Below are positions 6,529 to 37,275 of a stretch of DNA of 39,898 nt, in pieces. Source of the DNA: Gonapodya sp. JEL0774 (Eukaryota). A program made the translations under genes and the position numbers. The number at the start of each line of letters is the position of its first letter. Positions within the stretch are counted from its first letter, which is position 1. Location: the NCBI GenBank assembly GCA_027604505.1, contig JADIIX010000171.1:1-39898 (forward strand). Direction: 5' to 3'. The notes below the pieces were generated by a model. That model was not told the DNA's origin and did no database searches. It saw only the letters and a list, made by a program, of their open reading frames with translations.

Positions 6529-9421
6529 ATGGAACGCACTCTTCATGGACTGATTTTCCTGGCGGTCCTCGCGGTTCTAGTTACCCCCTATCACACCGTA
6601 TCGGCAGCTTTGTCCCCCGCTGCCACCAAAGCGCAGGGCGTCGCCACGTACCAACAGCTTCTCAATTTCTCACTCTTTTTTTTTGACGCACAAAAACTGG
6701 GGACCCTCCCACCTGATAACCCATTCTCTTGGTGAGTGTCCGCGGCAGATAATCGCATTAGCCGATGGGCAATATTGCATCGCACACACCAGAGGGTATC
6801 ATGGAGCGTTCGCTTGGTACATGGCGGGTGTCATCGGACACCGGTGTTGGTCACTGGCATCGTAGCCCTTGACGCTGCAAAGCTCAACATTCGAGGTCAC
6901 CTTCACCGTTTCTGCCCCTTTTGACCCTCTCCATTTCTTCAGGCGTCGGTCAGCAGTCGAACTGGATGGCGGGGACTCGAAAGTTGACCTGGGAGGAGGT
7001 TACGCCGATGGCGGAACATACCTCAAGTGCACTTTCCCGCTCGCTCACGCGACGACAATGATGGCATGGGGTGGTATTGAGTTCTGGGACGGGTACTCCA
7101 AAGCTGGACTTGGTGATAAACTCATCGCGGTTTTGAAGTGAGTCACGTGGTGTGTCTCCTTGCGTTCAATGCTCACGGGTTGAAGGTTCTTCTTTGACCT
7201 GAAGGTGGTCCACCGACTACCTTCTCAAGGCCTCGGCGACACCTACTCTGTTGTTCGTTCAGGTTGGAGATCTTGGCGTGGAGTCTGGCAACTGGGGAAA
7301 CGATTCCTCCATTCCGACACCCCGCCCGTCTTTTGCCGTGGCCACCACAAACGCGACCGACATCGTGGCAGAAACCGCTGCCGCTCTCGTGTCCGCAGCG
7401 TCTCTCTTTCGACTTCATTCCTCCCTTCCTTCGAACTACTCACAAGCGCTTCTCGCGCGCGGCCTTAACTTGTATGCTCAGGCGTACAACTCCACCTCAC
7501 GACAGCGATACCAGGACTCTGCACCAGCTGCTTCTGGCACATATCCGTCTTCTGGGTATGATGACGAACTCATTTGGGCCACTGCTTGGTGCACCTACGC
7601 GACTCAGGTGTTCGCTTTCAATTCGACCAATACACCTTTAAGCAACACAACGGGCAACGCGACAGCACCAGTTCCCGCCGAAAATCTTACACGAGATCTT
7701 CTCGCCTCTCGTACACTTTCACTGTATTCCACCGCATCTTGGAGCAACAGCACATCTTACTCTCCACCATTTTGGGACAACAAGATTCCTCAAATCTATG
7801 TTCTTCTACATCGACTTTTGAACATCACTCAGCGTGCCGATGAATGGGTTGCACCGCTGTATCAAACTACGAATGCAACTGCGCGTGCAGGCTTCTTCAC
7901 CCCTGGAGGACTGGTCTTCTGGGCGGGAGCCAGTGATACCTACTCATCCCACATCGCCTCGGAGGTTGCGTTTTTGAGCTTTGTCCTCGCAAAGGGTATG
8001 AGAGAACTCAACAGGAGTGGCGCAGATGCCGTGGAAAGCGTCGGAGTATTTCAACTTGGGTACCTATTGGGGAACAACCCCGCAGGTATCCCTTATGTGA
8101 GTGCTCGACACCACTACGTCATCTAATTTGTGTGTCACGGTGTGCTTTTCGTTTCCAATTCTTATCCAGGTTACTGGGATCAACTCTCTCTCACCTCTCC
8201 GCGCGTCTCATCGCCCTTCCTCCGGCATCAGTTCTCTAGCGTGCGCACTCAATTCGACTTCCCCCAATTTTTACCAACTGAGAGGAGCTCTGGTCGCGGG
8301 GCCAGATTCAAGAGATGGGTTCTCGGATGTCCGCGCAGCTTGGCAAGGTGGTAATCAGGTGCGTGACTTGATCGGTTCACAGCCGAGGGATCAACGGTCC
8401 GTTGGCGAACTTTGACAGACATGAAACTGTTTTGTACATCACGTGTCGCAAGCCCACTATCGTCGCGCAATCTGGCTACACCTCCGCTCTCGCCTACATT
8501 CTCCAGCAACCCGCATCATCACCGAATTTCCCACTGCTACCAGAAGTCTCTGCCGATATTCAACTTACTTTTTCGGACCCATGCGCCCCCCTTTCAAGCT
8601 CAGCCACTCCTCCTCCTCCTCCTCCTCCTCCTGCAGTAGATTCTGGAAGTAACAGGACCGCCATCGGAGCGGGTGTAGCCGCTGGTGTGGTAGTCGTTGT
8701 CCTGATGGGAGTCGCTGGCATCATCATGTACAATCGCCGGAAGAACATTGATGCAGGGGAGTCTGCCGTGCTTGGATCCTTTAGCAACAGAGAAATCGAG
8801 GTGAATGAACATGGACATGCAGCGGAACCTACGAATCACGACGGCGATGGTGCGTTTAGTGATAGCGGGACGCTTGTGGACAGAGGAAGCATGGACTTGG
8901 ACACAAGGCTAGCCATCGCAAGATCCCTAACGCCGAACGTGGGGACTGTGGAAACGCCAACCGGACAAGTTCCCGAGAGGCCTGTTTCGCCACGAACCAG
9001 AGCCCGGGAGGCATATCTAGAATCTCTTCAAACTCCGACGTGGTCAGGTTCGCTTGGGACAACTGGGGGTCAGCGTAGGAGATCTGGACGAGCACCGAAC
9101 CGCAATACATCGGGGAGAGAGCGCAGAACGCGAAGCACTGCGGAGGACACTGCTGGCGGAAATCAGACAACAAGCAGTGGGATTTTATCGTCGACCCTCG
9201 GGTCGCTGGGTTTGGGCCGAGTTCGAAGCATCCTTGGTCAGTCGAGAGTACCAGCTGCTGCGAGTGATGCGAATACCGCGTCCACAATTGAGCTCCTAAC
9301 GTCGGATGTTGAGACGACTGGCGATTTACCTCCTGCCCCCAATTCCACCGAAGTTGTAACGGCAAGACAATTGTCAGGTGAAAACGCGGCAGTGCTCTCT
9401 GCGGAGCAAAGGGAGCATTAG
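6529..9421 (+). CDS. Type I membrane protein: signal peptide, GH9 (cellulase-like) ectodomain, Pro stalk, TM helix, disordered tail
   Basis: GH9-type motifs across exons: SLFFFDAQKLGTLP, DLGGGYADGG, QVGD, ETAAALVSAAS, YPSSGYDDELIWA, FWDNK, QLGYLLGNNP, GALVAGPDSRDGFSDVR. TM AIGAGVAAGVVVVVLMGVAGIIMY followed by NRRK. Confidence 0.85.
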
Positions 9422-9881: not shown

Positions 9882-11626
9882 ATGACTTCGCGAATGTACC
9901 AGCGCTCACTTCGGCGGAGTCGATTAGTGATCCCTTTGCTGGCATGTGTGCTGATCATCCTGAATTTGCGGTTAACTCTCGGCCAAGTCATGTCCGTGAA
10001 TGGCTGCGTTTGCACGACGCCATGCACGGGTGGAGTCAATGCTGCCACGGGAAATATGGAATTTGTGAGCCTTGCAGTGCCCGTTTCTCCTAAACGACGT
10101 GGAACTGACATCCACCGTCCTATACGGACAGTTCTGTTTCACTGCCGCTACATGTAGAAACGCTATGCTGACTGCAGATCGAAGAACCTGGGATTTTTGT
10201 GTACCAGTGAGTCATTGGGGTTTTGCGTGGTTATTGGCGTGGATGCCCTGTGTGCTCAAATACCGAATCATCACGAAAGACGTCCTCCACTCTCACAGTG
10301 CAAAGAAGCTCCTCCAGTCTTGCAGCTTCGCGCTCTTCTTCACGCTCGACCGCCGCGATTCGTACAACAAGCTCTGCAGTGTTGACATCACAGGCCCCAA
10401 AACCTCCTCCCTCCCCTACCCCCATTGTGGCATCCACAGGCATACGAGTATCTGTCGGCAAACCATCACAAGCCTCAAAACCGACTTTCACCTCCTCTGC
10501 CGCTGCCGCTGACTTGGCTGCTGCGGCGACGTCCAACCGTATTGTCATGGGGTCAATTGTTCCGGATACCATGATGTCCACTGCCGCGCCAGCTGCTGCT
10601 GGGAGCAGTGCTACGATTGTCGGCATAGTAGTTGCACTGCTTGTCATGGCGGCTGTTGCGGGTCTTGTGGCACTCGTGGTGGTGAAGAGGCGTCACGACA
10701 GACGGGATCGAGAGGACACATTCGACCCAGCAAGATATGGATACGCAGTTTCAGGTCATTCATCAACTCAACGTCGCGATTGGGCGCAGTCGGCACGCTT
10801 TCCCGGGGATCCTCGTACTGGTCCTCCGATTAATATCCTCGTCTCCAAACGGCCAACCGATCAACGAAGGGAGCAACGCCCTTTCCCTGCCGAACTCACG
10901 ACCCAAACGCGCTCCGGCACCTCAGATCGTGGACCAAAGGCGAGAGACATGTCGCTTCCCCCAGGTGTTTTGTCAGCTGGTAGACGTGATGTGCAGGAGT
11001 CGCGCACTCGGCTTGGCGAGAGACCTCCTGCACCACCACCAAAGGGAATCAACGTAATAGCTGCAGAGGGCGGGATTATGCCGCACGAGGTGCCGCGTGC
11101 CTCAAATCGCAGAGGGTCGGCGGGAGATACACGTCCAATCGGAACAGACACTGTCGGGCACCGGAAGGTGCCTGCTTCACGAACGAGAAGTGATGACCCA
11201 ACATTGAATGCAATCAACTCTAAAGGGTCTGTAGATGTGCGAGGTCCACCGCCATCTCTTCCTCCTCTCGCTTCTTTCACATCTGATGCAACGCCTGCAA
11301 AGGGCACTCTTCCGTGGAAGACCCGTTCAGATCCGGTTGTCCCCACGCAGACACTAACTCACGGTGGTGGGAGCGACGCAAGCACTGGTCGGGATGTCTC
11401 GTTGGGCCCTTCACCACCGGAGACATCAACAAAAACGTACCTCGTTACTGGTGGCTACGAACCTCGTCGCATAGGCGGTATGCGATTGAGACCAGGACAG
11501 CGTGTTGTAGTTTGGGAGCGATATGGTGATGGATACGTTCTTGGCAGAGACGTGGCCACCGGGGTGGAAGGGGTCTTTCCGGCAACTTGCCTGGACGGTT
11601 TTGACGAGAAGGCGGACATTCCGTAG
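9882..11626 (+). CDS. Single-pass receptor-like protein A: Cys-rich ectodomain, Ser/Thr/Ala stalk, TM, Pro-rich tail, C-terminal SH3
   Basis: Exons 9882-10064, 10132-10206, 10280-11626 (phase 0). Signal LVIPLLACVLIIL; GCVCTTPC..|FCFTAATC..WDFC; TM IVGIVVALLVMAAVAGLVALVVV-KRR; SH3-like YEPRRIGGMRLRPGQRVVV..DGYVLG..GVEGVFPATCL. Confidence 0.8.
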
Positions 11627-11992: not shown

Positions 11993-13904
11993 ATGGTCCG
12001 CAGAAAACCTCGGCGAGCACCACCGTGGAGAAAGTCAGCTGGACTTGTCTGTGTGGCAGCTTCCCTCGCACTCTTGGGTCTCGTTGTGACCCCTATACTC
12101 GGAAATGCTCACACTTCGATACACGGATGCATTTGCCAGTCAGAATGCTTGGAAGTTACGCTGGCTGGACGGGTACGGACGAGACCTGTGAGTTGTCCCC
12201 TCCACGCTTGATATCACCCGGGTTCACAGGTTTTTTAACACACACCAACCCCCATCCACAATCAACCTGGGCACAACACGCAGTGGTGCTATACAGAAGA
12301 GGATTGCTTGGGGGCCATCAGCGTGGAAGGCGGAAGGAGCTGGGACTTTTGTAAGAATGTGAGCCTCCCGTTGGTTGCTGTTCGGGATGTCAACCATCAA
12401 CACCAACACGTCGCCAAAGTCTGCTCCGAAGATTGTACCACGACAGGCAGCTACCCCGACCGCAACCTCATTGACCTCCGCTTCCGCTCGCTCTTCTACA
12501 ACCGCACAGCTGTCTTCAACAATGCAGAGCACATTTGCTTCATCTGCCGCCACTTCAGTCATTCTTACTGTGTCGTCAGCTTCTCGAACATCTACGATGC
12601 CTTTGGTGACTGCGGGCAGCGTTCCCGTAAGCTCCGAAACCCTCATTCTCGCTCTCGGCACGACGACAAAGCTCTCTCCTTCGATGGCTGCCGCCGCCGC
12701 TGCAGCCGAGACTACTTCTACGAGTGTCGGGATAATTCTTGCGGCCGTTGGGGTTGCTGCGGTTATAGGTCTCGCTGCTTTGGTGTGGATAAAGCGGAAG
12801 CGGACCGACGAGGAAGAGCCTCCCAAGCCTCCTCGGAACCCATCAGGACGTGGGCTCGGTCGCTCACGCAGTCTGCTGGGCTTTGTGTCTCAGGCTGCGG
12901 CAGTGAATGATTTGGGGGAGATGGCGACGGGGAAGCGGGCGACTGGTCCTCCGAGTTTCATTATAGGGCGAAGACGAAGTGGATCACGGAGTTCTGGACC
13001 CCAGCCACCTCTGCCAAAGCCCCCGTCGAATCGTATGGAGTCGAACCAAGGAAGATCGAGCGGACTTCAAAATGACACATACAACAGGTCCGGTTCGTAC
13101 AGACCAGTCGGACCACCCCTTCGTTCTCGCGAGGAAACTTCCAAATTGAATCCGGAGGCGTACTCTCAGCGTCCGTCCGTGCGGCCAAATATGGCGCAGT
13201 ATCCCTCCCCTCGCCGCAACTCCTCCTCTACAAATAACGGATCCTCGCTTGCGCCACCACCTCCACCTCCGAAGGATATCCATCTTTCTTCAGACTCTTC
13301 CGCAGCACCGTCGAGATCAAAGTCGCTGGTTCGACCTGCACCCTCAACTAATCCGTACCGGTCTTCCACGGCCCCTACTGGAAAGGCCCCGCAAGATCCT
13401 TCGTACCAGCGAGCGGGTCAAGCTCGTGCACCGGAGCGAGGTCGAGACTCCGAAATCACATACCAAGAAAGTCGTCGACCCACACATCAGCGATCTTCTA
13501 GTGCGGGTGCATCCCTGCGTTCGGACCCATATCGACAGGAACAATACCCAAGCCAACGTACCGCCAATGCAAGCCCATCCCGCCGGTCTACCTACGATTA
13601 CAAATCCTCCTCAGTTTCAACAAATCGCCCACCGTCTCAGGGTCCACGTCCTTACTACAGTAGAAGTGGAAGCGGAACCTCTGCACATCCATACCCGAGA
13701 GAATCTTCGTCCGCGCAACCCCCTCCTCGACCACAGTCATCGGAGAAGCTTCGTACATCCCCGCCGCCAAGTGGATTCGACGTTCGTGGGCCTCCAGCCG
13801 ATCCAGGTCCTCTACGCACCAGGCCATCACAGCCGTCGAGTCGGGGTAGATCCAGCATGGGTGATCAGCGATTGTCGTCGACTCAGGACCAACAACTTCG
13901 CTGA
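11993..13904 (+). CDS. Single-pass receptor-like protein B, tandem paralog of A, without SH3
   Basis: Exons 11993-12187, 12284-12358, 12420-13904 (phase 0, same positions as A). GCICQSEC..RP|WCYTEEDC..WDFC; S/T stalk; TM VGIILAAVGVAAVIGLAALVWI-KRKR; long P/S/R-rich tail. Confidence 0.8.
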
Positions 13905-14631: not shown

Positions 14632-15972
14632 ATGGCCGACAACCTCCCAAACTTAATAGACGCCACAAATTTCCAACTAGACGATGTTTTGCTCCAAGAA
14701 TTTGGCACGTCCATTCAGAAAGATGCATTCAACCCTGGACCAGACGGAAAGTTTGCGAGTATCGCAAAGTATTTTTACCCAGAGCACTCTGTGACTTGAT
14801 ATTGTACTGCTCAGATTTACCATTTAAGACTACACCACTTCGATGTGGACCTGGAAAGAATGCAGAAAATGGCAACAAATTCTGATCGGAGAAAGGAGAA
14901 CGAGCATCTTCTCAATCGACTTGCATTGGAAAGCAAGGGGTCTCCTGATCTCGAGGTTCTAGAAAAATGCATTATTTTCGGAAAGCATGCGATGCGGCTG
15001 ATCATGCAAATTCCAAACGTGTACACACCTGATGAACGGCAAAAGTTCTGGGACGTTGCAAAGCCACTCGGTGACTCCTTACCATTCCCTGGGACAACGG
15101 AGAAATCTGTTCATTTGTTTGAATGGGCTTGCCACAGCAGTGGAATCTACCAAACTGCTCCAACCCGGGGCCTGGCAGATGACAGCTTCACACGATTGAT
15201 GTTCAAGGGAATATCCAAAGAGAGAGGCCGAGGCATTCTCCACGACATATCGGAGCTCTCAAGCAAGGCTGTCTACATTTCCTGGCACTTTGACAAACCG
15301 GTTTTCGACAGAAATGCCAATTATTTCCAGGCCTTGCGGGACAAGCCTGAGGAGGAAAGGACAAAACCAAAACCAATTTACGCTCTGAAGGATACCCCTT
15401 ACACCACTGTTGCATTGAACTATGGACAGCTATCTAGGGAGGGATTGGAAGAAGAAGGTGGTTCCCATTATGATGTGAAGGATGGGAAGAAGGGAATTGC
15501 GACTGTGGTTTCCTTCTCACGGCTTTGCCGCACTTGCAAGGGAAGGAAGACAAGAATGGGGTTTCTGCTCTTTCTTTCTGATGGGAGTGTGAAAGTTGTA
15601 TGGGTGAGGCTGAAGCCAGGAGATCAGGTTGTGTTCCTTGGTGGTCTCATGTGCCACAAGGTGCAGTCTGACTGTGAGGATTGCGAGGAGGATGCACTGA
15701 GGATGGTGCTGTTCACCCACCAACAAGTGATAAATTTGGCGGCAAAGGAGTGGAACAAAGTGAAGAGGCTTCCATTTGGTGAAGCAGATCCAGAAAAGGC
15801 CCAGGAAATTTATGATGAGGTTCGTACGCGACCTGGGCAGGGAGCGCAAGATCGAATGAAGTGGAGGAAACAGCACAAGAATTTCAAACAACACAACGTC
15901 CAGAAAAAGTTGGAACGGAAGGCGAACGCGGCTTTGAGGAAGACCCTGGATGGTGGCGTTTCTCGAACTTAG
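14632..15972 (+). CDS. Fe(II)-dependent dioxygenase, TET/JBP-like
   Basis: Open 375-codon exon 14845-15972 with TTVALN, HYDVKD (HxD at 15466-15474), LKPGDQVVF, distal His in LMCHKV and LRMVLFTH, in the family's motif order. A 5' exon from ATG 14632 with intron 14751-14828 is tentative. Confidence 0.62.
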
Positions 15973-16919: not shown

Positions 16920-17226
16920 GAGCATTTGCCGATTACACGAGCCCATTCTGGCACCCATCGTGGTCTGACAGCAGTGTAGGCATATACATGTACTTGCATC
17001 AACCCATTGTCATTTTCCGACACCGCTACCCTATCACCCCACTCAGACGCCTTAGTTGCTTCCTAACCAACACGTCTATTAAAGACCATTGCCGTGCGTC
17101 CCAGAATCACTGATTACCGCCCAGAAACCCGCAGTAGGACGAATCATTATTCTCTGTAATAAGCCCAAGTATCCCACGAGATGTATCGTGCCTTGGAATA
17201 TGCCGAGAGGAAGATCGATGAGATGC
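16920..17226 (+). repeat. Diverged dispersed repeat, copy 1 (copy 2 at 36987-37275)
   Basis: Collinear shared blocks such as GAGCATTT..CACGAG..TTCTGGCACC, CACTCAGAC.CCTTAGTT, CCAGAATCACTGATTA, CAAGTATCCCAC, GTATCGTGCCTTGGAAT. Confidence 0.8.
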
Positions 17227-24099: not shown

Positions 24100-26539
24100 T
24101 CACACCTTGATTTCCGCCGCCGTCAAGGCCTTTTTCTGGTCCCACTTGCAGTGGGGACACAGTCGGGCGCCAGGTTTGTGGGGCTGAGGCGGCGATGGGC
24201 GGGTAGGCAAGGACGTGGGGTGTGGTGGGTTGAAGTGGGCGAGGGGGGCGTGGAAGTGGGAGCAAGAGTAGTGCAGTGGCCCGGGCCGGCCGTGGTATTT
24301 GGTACGTGATGGTACAAAAGAAGAATGATGCGTGGGAGTTTGATTCGCGAGTGTGAGAGAGGGTGCAGATCGAGAGGGATCAGGTCCGTACAGTACAGAA
24401 CAAAAGGGGTGGGGACGTGTGTGGGATGGATAAGAGACCGACGCAAGTTCATGTGATTTAGTGTGAAGGGAGAGACAAGGTCCAGTGGGGAGCGGGAGAA
24501 TGGGAAAAGGTAAGGATGAGCACCTGACCCCAGCCAAAGTGTGGGAACCTGGCCACCGCACGCACGCGGAGGAAGTGGCAAACAGCACATAACAAGCGCA
24601 CCACGCAAAGGATTCATATAGAAGTAGGAATGCTCAGGGGAGTGATGCCATGCATGACACGCTCACTGGCATCCAGCGATCGCGGCTTCTGTCCCATTTA
24701 CAACTCCGGCGAAGGCGCATATTAATATCCCACCTTCCGCACATATCCACCCCAAATACATCCACCATACGAAAAACTCCCACCCCAGTGAGGCACCCCG
24801 CTCGTGATGGAAAGAAAAACCCACCTCCAAACACGCAGGGCACTGTTCCGTGACCGGTGGCGGGGGAGTCGGTTCTGCCGGCTTGGGTTTCGGGTAGATG
24901 GAGATGAGGAGCTAGAATGCAGCCGTGGGCCGGTGGGACCGCCACGATGGCAGAGGTGCAACATAAAGGCAGAGAGGGGCCGAGAGGGGGGTCGACGTCA
25001 GGAATGCGCCGGTGGGGTGATGGGGTTTGGAAGGAAATTTTGGTGAGATGGTGCGTGTAAAGGGAAGGTGTACGGCTATGTGATGGAAGTAGGTGAACAT
25101 CCAATGTGGATGCGTACTTATGCGTGTGCGTTCGGGGGTGGGGGTTGGGGTCCCATGTCCCTGGAGGAGCAAGTTGGTGCGTGGGCCGCGTCACCGCCAC
25201 CCCGATACCGTTGCAGTGTGGGGACCACCGTCCGGGTCAGATTCAAAAGACCAAATCCGCCCTCATTGCAGGCCATACACCAAACGACCGCACCCGAAGA
25301 GCTCCGAGCATACCAATAGAGGAAAGTGCATACACTTAGGTACAGCTTGCGCAACTTTCAGTGTCCACTCAAACGGGACTATCTTTCATCAGGATTGGTG
25401 ACGCTGCGGTGACGCCAATCCGGGGACATTGAGCTGGGGACTTTACACATTTCCGTTCCCCACCAGTCCGCCGCGCTGGCCTGGCTCGATCCCACTGGCG
25501 CTCGCACACCAAGGAAACTCCCTTACCTTGAAAATAACAAACATGACGAGGCATACGATGAAGAACGAGAGAAAAGTGTTGACGAAACTGCCGTCTTGTT
25601 TTGGTGGGTCCCGTGTGTTCACGTAGTGGATTGAGAGTGTGGGCAGAGACGCGTGTTACAAATCAGTCAACACAAAAGCCAGAAAAATTGAGTAGGGCAA
25701 ACACGATCGGCGCCCAGGGGACGGAAACGCAATGGATACATACAGTTCCAAGTGACCTGGTTTTCGGCCGCAACATTATGGTGGGGATCACAGAAGAGAG
25801 AACAGGGATGAGCATGCAAACATCAGTGGAGAGAGTGAAAACGTATCATATTGTCAGAAATTGTGTGCGCGTGCGTTCCACCGCCATTTGATTTAAGGTG
25901 CCCCGTAAGTGAGGACGACGCTCGAACCCCTGGCTCGCTTGCGAGCCACCAAACAATTCCCCCCAATTCTACAACTCACCGCCTCATCTCGTCTTGCCTC
26001 CTCCAGCGTCGGGTAATTCGTCTTTCCCGACTTTCCCGGCCTGAGCACAAGGTTTGCGTCGGGTAAGGACGAGTGCTGGGTAAAGAGGGCGACAAAAGGG
26101 GTGAAGAGATCCGTGACAGCTGAGTCGACGACGCGGGAGAAGGCGGCACCTGGGGGAAGGACGGTGCGGGTGGGTCCAGGATGCGATAAGGGATAAGGCG
26201 TATCGGCGTGAGTGAATGCGGGTGTTATGGGAGAGAGAAAGGTGGCAGAAACAACACGCCATCAAAAGTACATGCAGTAGTTCGAATAGTACAGCTGGTC
26301 CCAATCGTATCGGACAAAATGTCTCCCGGGTCAGTCATCCCACCGCCCACCATCACCACCACCCATCAAGCCAAAACGTGTTGCGCACCGATGATGACCG
26401 CGATGGCCAGATCAGCCACGTTTCCCCTGACGATAAAGGCCTTGAACTCTTGAAACAAGGACCGGGCTCCCTCGACCACGTGGGTGCCTGTCTCCCGCGC
26501 TTCTGCAAGGAGGGGGGTCGATGCGTCGTCAGTGGACAT
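24100..26539 (-). CDS. mscL: Large-conductance mechanosensitive channel MscL homolog, 190 aa, 6 exons, C-terminal CxxC..CxxC
   Basis: Exons 26539-26389, 26149-25980, 25756-25744 (13 bp), 25594-25527, 24911-24825, 24183-24100 total 573 bp. FQEFKAFIVRGNVADLAIAVIIG|AAFSRVVDSAVTDLFTP (TM1), VTWN|YGSFVNTFLSFFIV (TM2), CPACLE|..CPHC. Confidence 0.9.
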
Positions 26540-27058
26540 GGTTCCAGTGTATTTGAGTCGAAGGGTGGGGGACGCGTGTGTGTGGTGTGTTGTTTTGTCA
26601 CGGCTTCCAGAAGTCTCGACGGCTGGTGGATTGCAGGATCCAACGCTAACCACGGCGTCGAGGATTGTCGCTACAATGAAATGGATAGTGAAAAACATCC
26701 TTAAATATACCCTGAACTATCGCCTTTTTAACATCTCGAGATCATGCCTGTGACGCAATTCTGAACTTGGGAAAGCTTTCAGCTTGATATCACATGTATA
26801 TCTGGAAGGGAAAATTTCAAGAACTCTGTGGCTGGAGTGGTGGCTGCTAATTTGGGGGAGAAGTGTTGAAAACCCGAGTGTTTGTGAGCATCACCTCAGC
26901 TGGTGTCTGTCACACCTAAATTCGGAGGTCCGGCCCCTCAAGCGAATTTGGAAAGGATTGTTGTCCAAAATGGGTGGTCAGCATGGGACAGATCGGGGAT
27001 TGAGAGAGTGGGACTGGGACGGGGGTTGGGTGGTCCTTGAGCGGGAAGACAGATTTCT

Positions 27059-27830
27059 TCTCAATTAACGCGCAGGTGAGCATTCATACACGTTTCTGTG
27101 TTGCTCTAGCACCGCTACTGATTCTACCAAGTACAACCTAGTTTCATTATGGGCATACTGGCGCCTGCTATGCTCGAAATCATTCGTGGCGACCTGAAAC
27201 ACCGCTGCTCTGGTTTGCACCAAACGTTCTTTCACGACATGAAGAGCGGGGCGCGGCCACATGGTCTCGGCAAAAAGGACAGCGATGGATTGGAACGAGC
27301 TCTGTCCCTCGTGCGGGGCGACCAAGACGCATCACCGGCAATGAAATGGGGCAAGAGTGGAGATAAGGCTACCCTAGACGAGGATGGAAACGCTGGATCC
27401 GTCGAGAGCGGGACGATCGAGAACAACAGCAACTAAGAGAAGCTGAAATCTTCAACGTCGTGTTTCTCAAGAAGTTCAATCGCCCTCCAGGCTCCTCGGA
27501 AATTCAGAGGTACCTGCACTCGATCGTAGTGATTGTGAATTATCGCGACCAACGGTCCAATTGCTGGACCTGCCAATTTTGTTCGTGCAATGAAGCTCCA
27601 CCTCGCCAGAATGACGAGAGAGGAGCTGGATGCTCTCTCTGCAGCCGCCGATTTGCCAGCCGCAGAGTCGGAGCTAGCGAAGAAAGAAGTTGGTGTGTTC
27701 TTACGGCCGGAGTGGAGTGGATATGATTAGAAAAAGGCACCGCAGGGAGGGGTGGCGGATGGTGAGTGGGCCACGTCGTGTTGTTCTCGTTGCCGGACAA
27801 CACTTAACATCACATCAGAACGTGTTCTGA
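27059..27830 (+). repeat. ~770-bp direct repeat, copy 1; decayed gene-like sequence
   Basis: Collinear with 32981-33755 with long identical stretches (e.g. GGATGGAAACGCTGGATCCGTCGAGAGCGGGACGA; TTTCTCAAGAAGTTCAATCGCCCTCCAGGCTCCTCGGAAATTCAGAGGTACCTG). Frameshifts and stops differ between copies. Confidence 0.93.
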
Positions 27831-28306: not shown

Positions 28307-31300
28307 TCACACCTCAATTGTGCGTCGAGAATTTGCAAGTGCTTTGATTGCCCTTCTCCCAGCCTCACCAATCGAGTTGTCTGTAGTACAGAGAGGAGAG
28401 GAGACGGTGGGTGTGTGAATGTGAGTGAGACTCTGATCGGGAACGAGAGGTCAAACTCTGATACTCACCACTGACATGAAGCGACGTCAAGGTGGAGTTT
28501 GTCTTGAGGGCCTCACCAAGCGCTCCGGCACCAGCGTCACTGATCGAGTTGTCTAGAGTAGAGAGAGGAGAGAGGAGAGAGGAGGCAGTGCGTGTGTGTG
28601 TGTGTGACGCTGAGCGACAGCGAGAGGTCAAACTCTGATACTCACCACAAAGGTTGAGTGACGTCAAGGTGGAGTTTGTCTTGAGGGCCTCAGCAAGCGC
28701 TCTGGCACCAGCATCACCGATCGAGTTGTCTGGAGTAGAGAGAGGAGGGAGGAGAGAAGAGACGGTGTGTGTGTGTGTGTGTGTGACGCTGAGCGACAGC
28801 GAGAGGTCAAACTCTGATACTCACCACAAAGGTTGAGTGACGTCAAGGTGGAATTGGTCTTGAGGGCCTCAGCAAGCGCTCTGGCACCAGCGTCACGGAT
28901 CGAGTTGACTGGAGTAGAGAGAGTGCAGAGGAGAGAGGAGATGGTGGGTGTGTGTGTGAGAATGAGACTCTGAGCGAGACCGAGAGGTCAAACTCTGATA
29001 CTCACACGCCATATTGAGCGACTTCAAGGCGGAATTTGTCTTGAGGGCCTCAGCAAGCGCTCTGGCGCCAACCTCACCAATCGAGTTCCCTGTGTTCGGG
29101 TGGGACGGGGTGGTGGTAAAGTCATACGATAGAAGACACATTGACATCTCAAGGCGTAATGCTCCATACGCCCTGCTGGACTCACAGGCTAATTTTATTG
29201 TCCTGAGGGCACTATTAGTTTTGAGAGCATGGGCAATTGCGCTAGTTCCAGCATCTCCAACTGACTTCCCTTTGGTGGAGGGGCAAAAGTTGGAGGAGGA
29301 GGAACAAGTAAGAAGGGAGTAGGGCTTCTACATTTCGCCACTGCTTGGAGAGAGTAGAAACGCGCAATTTGAGATGCAACTCACACTGCAGATTAAGTTC
29401 GGTTTCGTGGTTGGCTATGTCCTGCAGCGCTTTGGATAAAGCACCTGCCCCGGCGGCTTTGCTTGTTCTGACATTCACTAGTAGGTTTGCGATTGTGAAG
29501 GATTCGTGTTAACACCAAGTGAATTGCGTGGTGTCTGCCAACTCACGGAAACGCCATGTCTCCAGGTCGTTTGCCGATAAAATTCTGGCGGGATCATCTT
29601 CCGGTAGTTTCTTTTCCCGGATATGGTGAACACTCTTCAGAAGGGCTTTTGCACGTTCTAGCTGCCCTTGGGAAAAATATGCTCGAGCGAGCGCATGCCG
29701 GGCCGCCAGCAGATCCGGATGGTCTTCCAATAAGACTCTTTCCCTAGCAGCAACAACAAGCTCCAACATGTTCACTGCCTTGTCTACTTGTCCAGAATAC
29801 TCGTATGCGTGGGCGAGCTCTTGCTGCGCCTCTAGCAGAGGAATGTTGTCTTGTGTAGGGGCTGGATATCGAAGACGTTTGAATGTTTCATCCAGCAGGG
29901 CAAGCCAACCCTCCCAAGGCTTTCTCTCGTCCCCTTCTAGCTTTCGACCTGTCAACACCACAGAAAGTTGTTGTCTTCCAGAGACGCACGTTTGAAGCCA
30001 TAGAGCTGCTTCTGCGAATCTTCCATCAGAGTTCAAGCACCGCCCAACCAGAAGACACAGGTCGTATTTTAGTTCCACCCCGTTTCCTTCGTCACTTCCC
30101 AGTACCTTCACGGCGTGCGGGAGGTACTCCCTCCATCGCTCCCGATTCTCCCACTCATTGGTTGGAAATATTCTCCTGATGTGTGTGATTGCCTCTTCCA
30201 TCTTTTTCGAAGCAAGGCGCTGCGTGCACAACCAGTGCCATGCCGCCAGGTGCACGAGACGGTGGAGATCGTACACTTCATCCTCTCTGTTGATTTCTTC
30301 TGAGCGACGTGACACGAATGCGTACCCAATGAGGGTACCGATTGCTCCTTCAATTTTCACGGCGCCACCGGCGGTGGGCAGGATGGTTCGAGGGATGGAC
30401 TTCCATTCGATACAAGCCATGAAGGCCAAGATGTCTTCTGAGAGAGGATTTTCTCGGCGGATCTGCTTGAACGAGACCACCCATGTTTTGGCCACTGAAT
30501 TATGAGATTCCTCATAACGTGTTTGGTCACAAAAGTCTTCGCTTAGAAGTTCCGTCATATCTTCCTCCAGCAGTTCCCTATACCGCTTGATTGTTATTGA
30601 GTTAATATTCAGGTACGCTGCTGCTTGGGCGATCGCCACCGGAAGGTTGGTTAGGTCCTTCAGGAGGTTGGAAGTGTTCAATTGATCTCCCAGCAATTCT
30701 GTTCTTGTGAGGGACTTCCTGAAAAACTCTGCCGCCTCCTCGTCGCTCATTGCTTGCATATTGATGGTGTCAACTCCTGCAAGGTATGTCCCCACCTTCA
30801 GGGGGCGGGTTGTGAACAGAAGAAGACGTTCTTGTTCGCTCTGTGGAAGGTAGTAATTAAGGCCTCATCCCTGCTTGGTGTGAAACACTACATCTGCGTC
30901 GTCAGCATTGTCTATGATCAAGAGCCACTTTCCGGCTGCTTCTTTGCTCAAATAGCGCTTGACAACCTCCTTGATGTCTTCCGTTGCCCCAGTCGTTTGA
31001 GAGACACCAACTTTCATAGCCACCTCCTTGCACGCCTGCTCAAAGCTCTCCATGCTGAGCGCAGGGAACCAGAAGATTGAGTAGTCTTGATATGTGTCCT
31101 TGACTCTGTACGCAAACTCGAGTGCAACTTGCGTCTTTCCCACTCCACCGAGTCCCACAAGAGCCGCCCTCTGACAATCTTTATTGTCAAAGAGCTTTCT
31201 GTTCAAGGTTGCGAGGACGTGATCCCGCCCTACAAACTGTTTGTTCCTCGAAAAGGGAATGTAGTAGCGGGGCGGGGAGGAGCAAGGAGTCACACCAACT

Positions 31301-31549
31301 TCGGGGTGGGAAGCACTAATGACATTCATGATATTGCAGCGGTCAAAGATACGAACAGTAAGCACGCGGAGCCTTGAATGGTTCAGCTTGCCTTGAGCCG
31401 TTGTAGAAGGATGATCCAACTTGAGCACGCGCATTGTCGCCAATGTGCAGGGACCCTACTGAGTAGGTGATATTATGCACTATTTGCGGAGGCAGCGATG
31501 GATTTGGAAAGTGCGGTTCAGCAGCAACAGCGGTGGTGGACATCGCCAT
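28307..31549 (-). CDS. NLR-type STAND protein: HRAM-like motif, NB-ARC, TPR, RNI-like LRR array (~843 codons, 9 exons); one in-frame TGA, possibly a pseudogenised allele
   Basis: Exons 31549-31357 (first intron tentative), 31298-29547, 29477-29385, 29269-29186, 29089-29006, 28908-28825, 28729-28646, 28552-28469, 28380-28307. P-loop GLGGVGKT, Walker B WLLIIDNAD, FTTR, LPVAIAQAAAYL, LHRLVH; TPRs with EDHPD; LRRs LTSLNLCDNSIGDAGARALAEALKTNST. TGA at 30867-30865. Confidence 0.8.
28340..29100 (-). repeat. Tandem array of ~172-181-bp exon+intron units, each encoding one 28-aa LRR; introns contain (CA)n and CT-rich tracts
   Basis: Exon starts at 29089, 28908, 28729, 28552, 28380. Four consecutive introns begin with the identical 25-mer GTGAGTATCAGAGTTTGACCTCTCG. 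Confidence 0.95.
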
Positions 31550-32980
31550 ATCCAAGAACAGGAACAGTGCCGATAAGACCGTCTGGAAAGGAATTCAAAA
31601 GGGACGCGGTCCCGTCAACATCAATACAGAGCAGACAGTAATAGTAATATGCATCACGCGACTGGAAACCTGCTTAGGCCGGTGGCACTCAAAACAGCTG
31701 GAAAGGAACGAGCCCCCACCTGCCACACTGGAATGGAATGGAATTGAATGGCGGCGAAACCTAACTCTCACAATGGAATCAAAACGCGACCACCCTTTTT
31801 TGGATTTGGAATGGAGGGCGGGATGCATTTTTGTTCTTTGGACTCGGCTTCCCCTGCTCTCCTTTGGATTCCGCGTTTGGACTCATTCGAACCAACACTT
31901 TGTGGGCCCGCAACGGAGAATGGACTGGAGAATGAACTCGAATTTGCTGCGCAAAATAGCACAAGCGAAGGGTTGGCAATGCATTGGACTGCAGTGGATG
32001 TGTTTCCATCCCAATCACTGTCAGGCCCGTTGTTGCTCCATCCGTTTCACAGAGCCCCGTCATCCTGGTCAAAGCCACGTTCTCTCAACTAAATGAAAAC
32101 AACTCAATTCTGAACTCCGTGAAATTCAGGCTTCACATTTTGAAGAGCGTTGTTGGAAATCGAACAGCGGATTCCCGCCATTCGAGCGATTTTGGAAAGT
32201 GGTGCGCCGGCACCCACGCGATACAACTCGCTGTGTGTGTCGGGTAAAATTTTGGATTCTCCCAACACAAGCTCGCCGAATTGTGCCGGAGGAAGGAGTC
32301 TGGATCGAATCATCCCCCAAACCAAGAATAGATTCCTGAAAGCGAATCATAGAGGCACCGTCCCCCGAAAGCAATTGACCCAACGCAGCGACAAGCTCGG
32401 CGTTTGCGGAGGGAGTGGCTGGATTAGCGGCAGAGTGCTTCGCTTTCTTGTTTGAAGACATCTCTGATTTTTGAGAAGATGCGGAGCGTTTGTACCGCGC
32501 TCCCACCGGAACCTCGAAATATTAACAAAACTCACCATCTTCTCGTGCGCTTCTCGTCTCCCCTTTGCTTCTACGACTGCCTGTTGTCTCTTGTGTCGGA
32601 CCTGAAACCGCACGCCCCGCTGCCGTTATCCTCGCGGTCAGACCAACAATGCTTGACCTTTCAAACTCATCGCGTCCCGCGCCAAGTTTCTGCTCTCACT
32701 CTTAGAGAAAGAGCTGTTTCCCTCTCGCGCGGGTTGCGTTTTTGATTTTCCTGGGGAATCGCATCGTTCCTTCGTGTCCATCGGAAACCTACCTGTCAAT
32801 CGCACAATCACAATAGTACGTTGTCCCACATCCCCCCTTTTCTTTTCTGGTTTCAATCCTTCCTGTAGCGTATTCAGCTTTCAACTCAGATGGCATCATC
32901 ATCCCCCACTCCCCTACCCGGTCTTCCAGTCTTCGTTGGTAACCCCCGGAAGTCCAAGGATGTGTCAAAGGGTTAGAGGA

Positions 32981-33755
32981 TCTCAATTAAGGCGCAGGTG
33001 AGCAGTCATACACGTTTCTGTGTTGCTCTAGCGCCAATACTGATTCTACCAAGTACCACCTGGTTTGGCTATGGGCATACTGGCGACTCTTTAGCTCGAA
33101 AGCATTCGTCACAAACTGAAACAGCGCAGCCACGGTTTGCACCAAACGTTCTTTTCACAACGTTAAGAGCCGGGGACGGCTACCTGGTCTCGGCAAGAAG
33201 GACCGCGATGGATTGGAACGCGCTCTGTCCCTCGCGCGTGGCGACCAAGACGCATCACCGACAATGAAAAGGAGCAAGAGGGGGAGCTATGGCTACTCTA
33301 GACAAGGATGGAAACGCTGGATCCGTCGAGAGCGGGACGATCGAGAACAACAGCAACTAAGAGAAGCTGAAATCTTCAACGTCATGTTTCTCAAGAAGTT
33401 CAATCGCCCTCCAGGCTCCTCGGAAATTCAGAGGTACCTGTACTCAATCGTAATGAATGTGAATTATCGCGACCAACGGTCCAATAGCTGGACCTGCCAA
33501 TTTTGTTCGTGCAATGAAGCTCCACTTCGCCAGAATGACGAGAGGAGCTGGATGCTCTGTCCGCAGCTGCGGACTCGCGAGCGAAGGAGTTGGGGAGCCA
33601 GCGAAGAAAGAAGTTGGTGTGTTCTTAAGGCCGGAGTGGAGTGGATATGATTGGAAGAAGGCACCGCAGGGAAAGGTGGTGGATGGTGAGTGGGGCAGTT
33701 TGTGGTTTTCGCGTTGCCAGAGGTTCAATATCACATCAGACGGTCTTCTGTACCC
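32981..33755 (+). repeat. ~770-bp direct repeat, copy 2
   Basis: Begins TCTCAATTAA..GCGCAGGTGAGCA as in copy 1 and stays collinear to ..ATCACATCAGA; offset between copies is 5922 bp. Confidence 0.93.
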
Positions 33756-36986: not shown

Positions 36987-37275
36987 GAGCATTTTCCGAT
37001 CGCACGAGTCCGTTCTGGCACCATTCTGTCGGACAACGGTGTGGCCATATGCTTCAGCTTCTGACACTGCTACACTCTCACCGCACTCAGACACCTTAGT
37101 TCCTCATCAACCAACACGTTTGTTAAAGGCCCGTGTCGTGCCTTCCAGAATCACTGATTATCCCGTGAAAACCCACCCCAAGCTCCATCATTGTTCTCAG
37201 TAAGAAACTCAAGTATCCCACCAGACGTATCGTGCCTTGGAATCTGCCGAGTGGAAGAATGATTGGTTGCGATGC
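36987..37275 (+). repeat. Diverged dispersed repeat, copy 2 (copy 1 at 16920-17226)
   Basis: Same orientation and block order as copy 1; one frame reads QVSHQTYRALESAEWK versus QVSHEMYRALEYAERK. Confidence 0.8.

Follow-up and report, generated by a model that had tools for sequence, protein, structure and literature searches.

In the closest described systems, NWD2/HET-S of Podospora anserina and the HRAM1 pairs, a single 21-residue motif replaces the N-terminal effector on an NLR, and the effectors that have been described carry the motif at their C-terminus, usually twice, and are encoded by an adjacent gene (PMC4518210, PMC5485727). The adjacency of NLR and effector is common, not systematic (PMC4518210). 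Among amyloid-controlled effectors, MLKL-related bundles are the usual type (PMC9815663, PMC12881547), and HELL-kinase proteins resemble MLKL (PMC12881547). Amyloid motifs have been documented in Ascomycota and Agaricomycetes, with the effector motifs sought at C-termini (PMC9815663), and amyloid signalling in fungi rests on documented cases in ascomycetes and on inference in agaricomycetes. Fungal NLRs are described as having ANK, TPR or WD and not LRR (PMC9815663), and no LRR was reported in 5,616 fungal NLRs (PMC4986451); a 122-proteome screen that allowed LRRs included Gonapodya prolifera, and an LRR case may be among its results (PMC12258605). In the portion of the main table of PMC9815663 that was covered, 34 of 34 Chytridiomycota rows are without an amyloid motif and the term "LRR" is absent.

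The window, by which we mean the whole stretch of 39,898 nt of DNA analysed from the early-branching aquatic fungus Gonapodya sp. JEL0774, harbours a gene that departs from both the chytrid NLRs without an amyloid motif (PMC9815663) and the fungal NLRs without LRR (PMC4986451), as far as the available portions of these papers describe them. The gene is not mentioned in the available portions of PMC11291939, PMC8778642, PMC10197012, PMC12261475 and bioRxiv 10.1101/2020.01.06.895854. Our main reading, to which we give a probability of about one half, is that the exon predicted to come first in an NB-ARC-TPR-LRR gene holds a HET-s-type (HRAM) motif; intact paralogs of this gene would signal by amyloid templating, and the present copy is likely a pseudogene. 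The interest of the locus comes from its lineage, its LRR tail and an unusual candidate partner, and its value is limited by two points: this copy has a stop codon, and splice and function are predicted from sequence. The features of the locus are listed in Table 1.

Table 1. Features of the NLR locus (coordinates within the window)
Feature	Position	Strand	Remarks
Predicted exon 1	31357..31549	-	64 codons + 1 nt; 26-residue leader, amyloid-like motif, short tail
HRAM-like core, 21 residues	31409..31471	-	Single copy; nearest HRAM1 NLR-side (r0) motifs; Y3 and S20 at usual Asn positions
Predicted intron, 58 nt, phase 1	31356-31299	-	Donor GTTCGT, acceptor AAG; joins motif exon in frame to NB-ARC
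Exon 2, intronless: NB-ARC, helical linker, TPR repeats	29547..31298	-	Pfam NB-ARC/AAA_16, TPR_10/12; homologs
In-frame TGA inside NB-ARC, residue 209 of model	30867-30865	-	Arg in 4/4 paralogs
Seven LRR exons, ribonuclease-inhibitor type	28307..29477	-	LRR_6 E 5.7e-23; five exons exactly 84 nt
Direct repeat of ~740 bp, left copy	27059..27797	.	Brackets NLR gene
Direct repeat of ~740 bp, right copy	32981..33721	.	Blocks 78-96% identical to left copy; spacing ~5.9 kb

A preliminary description of this DNA had placed a HET-s/HRAM-like motif at 31400..31477, and translation of the minus strand (31477-31400) confirmed the 26 residues that it quoted. Numbered by the HRAM scheme of PMC4518210, the 21-mer encoded at 31471-31409 has V5, L8, I10, A16 and V18, R15, and G19, and thus every residue that characterises the NLR-side (r0) HRAM motifs (hydrophobic at 5, 8, 10, 16 and 18, R or K at 15, G at 19), as in NWD2/HET-S and the HRAM1 pairs. 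Position 3 is occupied by Tyr and position 20 by Ser; these two residues and A16 are atypical for HRAM. The Asn at position 3 of the HRAM1 subfamily (HRAM2 has Q, HRAM3 has H) is replaced by this Tyr, and the motif was assigned to no subfamily; some of the r0 motifs listed in PMC4518210 are likewise without Asn3. The motif also starts at residue 25-27, whereas residues 5-9 are typical of the HRAM1 pairs.

A loose HRAM pattern was matched at 3 of 79,792 six-frame positions of the window and at 46 of 1,183,782 control positions; when the exon peptide was shuffled 200,000 times, 395 of the shuffles matched it. The motif was then scored with a profile of our own, the mean BLOSUM62 score over the first five distinct NLR-side motifs, in file order, of the PMC4518210 supplement; these motifs were picked after the likeness had already been noticed, and the profile is not the published HMM. 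With this profile the motif ranked first of 79,672 window positions (score 30.2, second 16.0), and none of the 1,174,182 control positions from 80 loci reached it or came within 8 points. It still ranked first when the most similar training motif was left out (26.5 versus 17.5). Identities to the five training motifs were 8, 9, 7, 8 and 3 of 21 residues; for four published NLR-side motifs they were thus 7-9 of 21, with 8 of 21 for the r0 motif on the HET-s row and 9 of 21 for another. Pfam gave no family at E<=1 for the motif exon, HET-s included, and PF11558 itself matches only 38 of 155 HRAM proteins (PMC4518210). A PDB sequence search with the exon returned weak unrelated matches only (exostosin, an efflux pump), an Atlas search gave no usable match, and no second HRAM-like motif was found in the window by the five-motif profile. 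The motif is not a chance occurrence. The HRAM-like identity claimed earlier is borne out by the identities and the top profile rank; judged by sequence and position, the motif resembles an HRAM r0 motif and is very probably HRAM-derived.

Exon 1 starts at ATG 31549 or 31543, and its frame, if left unspliced, meets a stop after 68 codons. Four alternative in-frame GT/GC-AG combinations exist, each with a GC or weaker donor than the intron of Table 1. The NCBI model of HDU93_002552 takes ATG 31434, in the NB-ARC frame, as its start and omits the motif exon, which illustrates how such motifs come to be overlooked. An effector exon further upstream, spliced to an acceptor at 31583, was ruled out, as the candidate exons had at most 35 open codons and the upstream frames gave no Pfam match. 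These results uphold the earlier remark that the N-terminus lacks an enzymatic effector domain.

The 58-nt intron had been proposed in the preliminary description, and it gained indirect support, as a prediction, from a survey by script of 27 fungal-looking related loci out of 80 fetched. In 14 of the 27, a phase-1 intron was predicted to end no more than 40 nt from the start of the NB-ARC match; the others had a phase-0 intron at -45 (one locus), only distant introns (two) or none (ten). Upstream of the junction the relatives have PNP_UDP-, HET-, lipase- or patatin-like effector frames (domain names assigned by eye). Since the phase-1 junction is shared and effector-like frames lie upstream of it in relatives, the motif exon appears to occupy the effector slot of the family. 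An HRAM was found within 450 nt upstream of NB-ARC in 0 of 31 related loci, and anywhere in 0 of 80 loci. Splicing of the motif exon to NB-ARC is predicted as probable, and a single N-terminal copy of the motif on the NLR would follow from the in-frame splice model and the conserved phase-1 junction.

The opposite view is that the likeness arose by chance in non-coding 5' sequence and that the protein starts at ATG 31434 as annotated. The NB-ARC frame indeed runs across the proposed intron with no stop codon, both in this gene and in the paralog HDU93_006776, and the donor GTTCGT is unlike the other donors of the gene. The profile statistics (rank 1 of 79,672, with 0 of 1,174,182 controls), the conserved phase-1 junction and the independent annotation of the motif frame as coding in a second protein, HDU93_005754, all argue against chance, which we consider very improbable.

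The NB-ARC-TPR region had its best match in HDU93_002552 of Gonapodya sp. JEL0774, annotated as NB-ARC-TPR-LRR. The gene model has nine exons and 843 codons, with eight introns that are all in phase 1 and a GTGAGT donor in seven of the eight; its last base, at 28307, is that of the final stop codon. The LRR part is rich in introns, in contrast to the intronless NB-ARC-TPR exon. The last 204 residues coincide with the NCBI model, and the GC3 of 0.55 falls inside the range of the other window frames. As a gene model, the LRR-bearing NLR of the preliminary description thus holds. The receptor differs in its NB-ARC-TPR-LRR architecture from the NACHT-WD of NWD2, and in its host, a monoblepharid. 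By analogy, the ribonuclease-inhibitor-type LRRs recall NACHT-LRR receptors (NLRPs), from which the receptor differs in having NB-ARC and TPR. The NB-ARC-TPR-LRR architecture with 84-nt phase-1 LRR exons (28307-31549, minus strand) is at least partly common to the paralogs.

An in-frame TGA, which had gone unmentioned in the preliminary description, was found in this copy. As it interrupts NB-ARC where all four paralogs have Arg, the copy is probably a recent pseudogene. The NCBI model skips the TGA with a 93-nt intron (30888-30796), deleting 31 residues; in each of 35 aligned homologs, chosen from the best 120 of 1,056 matches, these positions have an occupancy of at least 80%. This intron was rejected, because its donor is GTGTTT versus GTGAGT in 7/8 introns and because the 31 residues are kept in all the homologs. 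With the in-frame TGA this copy would not encode an intact NLR able to oligomerise, and prion-like signalling from it, as proposed earlier, is not supported: the NCBI model evades the nonsense codon only by cutting out conserved residues. Even so, the motif could be retained in a product of this copy that is truncated or left unspliced.

It might be argued that this copy is functional and that the TGA is an assembly error, is present on one allele or is removed by the annotated intron. The remainder of the 843-codon model is open and the splice sites are intact, and the lesion must therefore be either recent or artefactual. The atypical donor and the loss of 31 residues that all 35 aligned homologs keep speak against removal by splicing, and a functional copy is quite unlikely. 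The gene lies between direct repeats of ~740 bp, which may mark a duplication or insertion; no Pfam match was obtained in their frames. Another dispersed repeat pair of 217 nt, 77% identical, is present at 17010-17226 and 37054-37270.

Four paralogs in the same organism were present among the best 120 of 1,056 matches. One has an LRR_6 tail (HDU93_005986); by eye, two others terminate in a stretch that looks like the first LRR exons, and in one the end is a read-through of the same intron. HDU93_006776 is a mosaic, 78% identical to the present gene over the first 160 residues and 37-43% beyond, a pattern that suggests recombination or conversion within the family. When read in the motif frame, this paralog has [ILV]16-[HY]17-[LMV]18-G19-[DHNY]20 under any codon choice; in its annotated frame, six consecutive residues differ from this gene over the motif end. 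Its motif end thus appears to be the more canonical HRAM end.

The receptor shares 37-49% identity with its relatives outside Gonapodya, and the best 120 of 1,056 matches include 29 named ones, all of which we take to be Pezizomycotina. Among the closest known systems are Pezizomycotina NB-ARC-TPR NLRs with PNP_UDP, HET or lipase effector exons (for example in Periconia, Cenococcum and Bathelium), which share the predicted phase-1 junction before NB-ARC. Unlike the Gonapodya gene, no relative examined had an HRAM exon, and no LRR family was found among the non-Gonapodya matches listed. In a tree of 36 rows, with the Gonapodya genes as the only chytrid sequences, these genes formed one clade (100/99) within a 24-row clade (100/97) with 15 named Pezizomycotina, the branching inside which was not resolved. 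A 70-row tree of the same scope gave a similar outcome, and a quick tree of 30 rows placed the Gonapodya genes as the sister group of the named rows. None of the trees showed these genes as nested within the named Pezizomycotina, and no donor is claimed for this reason. Transfer of the NLR core from an ascomycete is plausible. An NB-ARC-TPR protein of G. prolifera, KXS09060.1, is listed in a table of PMC9815663. The motif agrees with ascomycete r0 motifs at 7-9 of 21 residues, while the receptor shares no more than 37-49% identity with its relatives outside Gonapodya, and this suggests long selection on the motif.

The preliminary description had recognised no HeLo-type partner in the window, and this agrees with the present search: 89 window frames (the neighbourhood of the gene and the longer frames elsewhere, out of 124 frames of at least 100 aa) gave no HeLo-type Pfam match, and an adjacent HeLo or HeLo-like effector gene with two C-terminal repeats was absent from them. 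In both this absence and the nonsense codon the locus differs from NWD2/HET-S. Lacking an adjacent HeLo partner with two repeats, and with a broken receptor copy, the locus was not classed among complete NWD2/HET-S-type systems. In place of the HeLo protein that was expected, with its motif doubled at the C-terminus, the searches brought up a protein that the preliminary description did not include, with one N-terminal copy of the motif, a likely MLKL-type bundle and a kinase.

This protein, HDU93_005754 (KAJ3335351.1, 909 aa), is encoded by the same organism on a separate 13-kb contig. It was the one protein at E<=0.001 in a phmmer search with the exon against 1.84 billion representatives, and the sole match among 32 candidates from a word search of a 5.8-billion set; a 21-residue match on its own cannot attain E<=0.001 in such searches. 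Aligned with exon 1, the first 60 residues of HDU93_005754 show 48 identities in 61 positions (79%), and the homology stops at the exon edge. The motif exon is followed by a helical region, a kinase (316-577) with intact VAVK, HRD and DFG catalytic motifs, and a PARP-like ADP-ribosyltransferase (794-885). The latter contains the H, Y and E motifs, a triad that we take to be the PARP-like catalytic signature.

For residues 70-270 of HDU93_005754, the nearest Atlas cluster (0.91, 195 of 256 features) has MLKL_N on 36% of its members, and 7 of the 10 best family-bearing matches agree on MLKL_N. Pfam detected no MLKL_N in the protein at E<=10, and a PDB sequence search returned nothing specific in support of MLKL. 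Single-sequence models had pLDDT values of 44.7 and 49.5 and showed a generic helical bundle. With these low-confidence models Foldseek found nothing at E<=0.001, and VIA-align found generic four-helix bundles (best talin, Z 11.2, rmsd 2.4, 97 aligned) with no MLKL among the best 50 rows. A search for relatives of residues 1-290 recovered only the protein itself among 5,318 candidates. On the Atlas matches, residues ~75-240 likely form an MLKL-type four-helix bundle.

With its likely MLKL-type bundle ahead of a kinase, HDU93_005754 is reminiscent of the basidiomycete BaMLKL effectors and the fungal HELL/MLKL-kinase proteins (PMC9815663, PMC12881547), for which NLR and effector are likewise at separate loci. 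In the available descriptions of these proteins, however, the motifs are C-terminal to the bundle, while HDU93_005754 has one N-terminal copy and an ADP-ribosyltransferase after the kinase. It also differs from the described effectors in that its single, N-terminal motif, on another contig, precedes the helix whose release MLKL-type domains require.

The motif of HDU93_005754 had the highest profile score (23.2) among 122 proteins scored. It is degenerate, with 5 changes in the 21 core residues (V5I, L8Q, H9Y, D12G and S20P) and 8 in the 40 flanking residues, and the core is no better conserved than the flanks. The 79% identity of the exon equals the range of the three closest receptor paralogs (75-86%), and a simple exon duplication would give such a value. 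No further Met occurs before residue 242; in the current gene model, the bundle consequently needs the motif exon for its start. HDU93_005754 may be either a partner of the NLR or the recipient of a captured exon, and both fit the conservation of core and flanks.

The exon could thus be a relic cassette: an HRAM-derived first exon, providing promoter and start codon, that phase-1 exon shuffling spreads between genes and that has ceased to signal, its presence on the MLKL-kinase gene reflecting exon capture or a gene-model fusion. This would agree with the stop codon in the present copy, the core of HDU93_005754, with its L8Q and S20P changes and its conservation no better than that of the flanks, the failure of the 89 window frames and the exon database searches to yield a classical partner, the uniform phase 1 of all eight introns and the position of the gene between direct repeats. 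A relic would hardly be expected to score far above every control, to persist in more canonical form in HDU93_006776 or to supply the only start available to the bundle of HDU93_005754. We regard it as a tentative possibility, of lower probability than signalling by the intact paralogs.

Alternatively, the classical arrangement may hold, with the true effector encoded at another site of the genome, as a HeLo or HeLo-like protein with two C-terminal HRAM copies, and HDU93_005754 as incidental. Such a protein could have escaped the searches, given the limit on 21-residue matches. Such an arrangement is the rule in ascomycetes, where 98 of 155 HeLo-HRAM genes have an adjacent NLR, and non-adjacent pairs are suspected (PMC4518210, PMC9815663). 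The window itself offered neither a HeLo-type Pfam match in the 89 frames nor a second motif, and a classical effector at another site seems rather unlikely.

For the intact family members, amyloid templating has in our view an even chance of being the mode of signalling, by analogy with NWD2/HET-S. A ligand at the TPR/LRR end would trigger oligomerisation of NB-ARC, which would bring the single-copy motifs together to stack as a beta-solenoid seed. The seed would then convert a protein bearing a matching motif, for which HDU93_005754 is the best candidate, and clustering would activate this protein, resulting in membrane damage and possibly cell death, or in another defence output. HDU93_005754 is unlikely to be a working effector in the full necrosome-like sense. 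The broadest version, also improbable, is a necrosome-like pathway built by exon shuffling in an early-diverging fungus, in which an ascomycete-related and possibly acquired NLR core would have been joined to LRR exons and a HET-s-type amyloid exon, and the same exon would have been placed at the N-terminus of a single chain of MLKL-type bundle, active kinase and ADP-ribosyltransferase that LRR-bearing receptors would switch on by amyloid templating. The analogy with the animal necrosome (RHIM-RIPK3-MLKL) is in the functional set of amyloid motif, kinase and MLKL-type bundle; in contrast to it, the motif here is HET-s-like, not RHIM/PP-like, and the three parts would be in one chain.

If this broadest version is correct, amyloid signalling would extend beyond Dikarya, an LRR-bearing fungal NLR would be added to those described, and an effector would be wired through an N-terminal instead of a C-terminal motif. 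Since one duplicated exon gives matched motifs at once, the NLR motif and HDU93_005754 would be a testable pair for the birth of an NLR-effector link.

Other genes were observed in the window. Exons matching the mechanosensitive channel MscL, a mostly bacterial family, are present at 25896-26716 (minus strand), split by introns. A 390-codon open frame at 14800-15972 (plus strand) had no Pfam match at E<=1. On the plus strand, a GH9 glycoside hydrolase exon (7203-8126) is followed by three long frames (8372-9421, 10211-11626 and 12363-13904) that have a Ser/Thr-rich stalk and a hydrophobic segment, and one of these ends in an SH3 domain.
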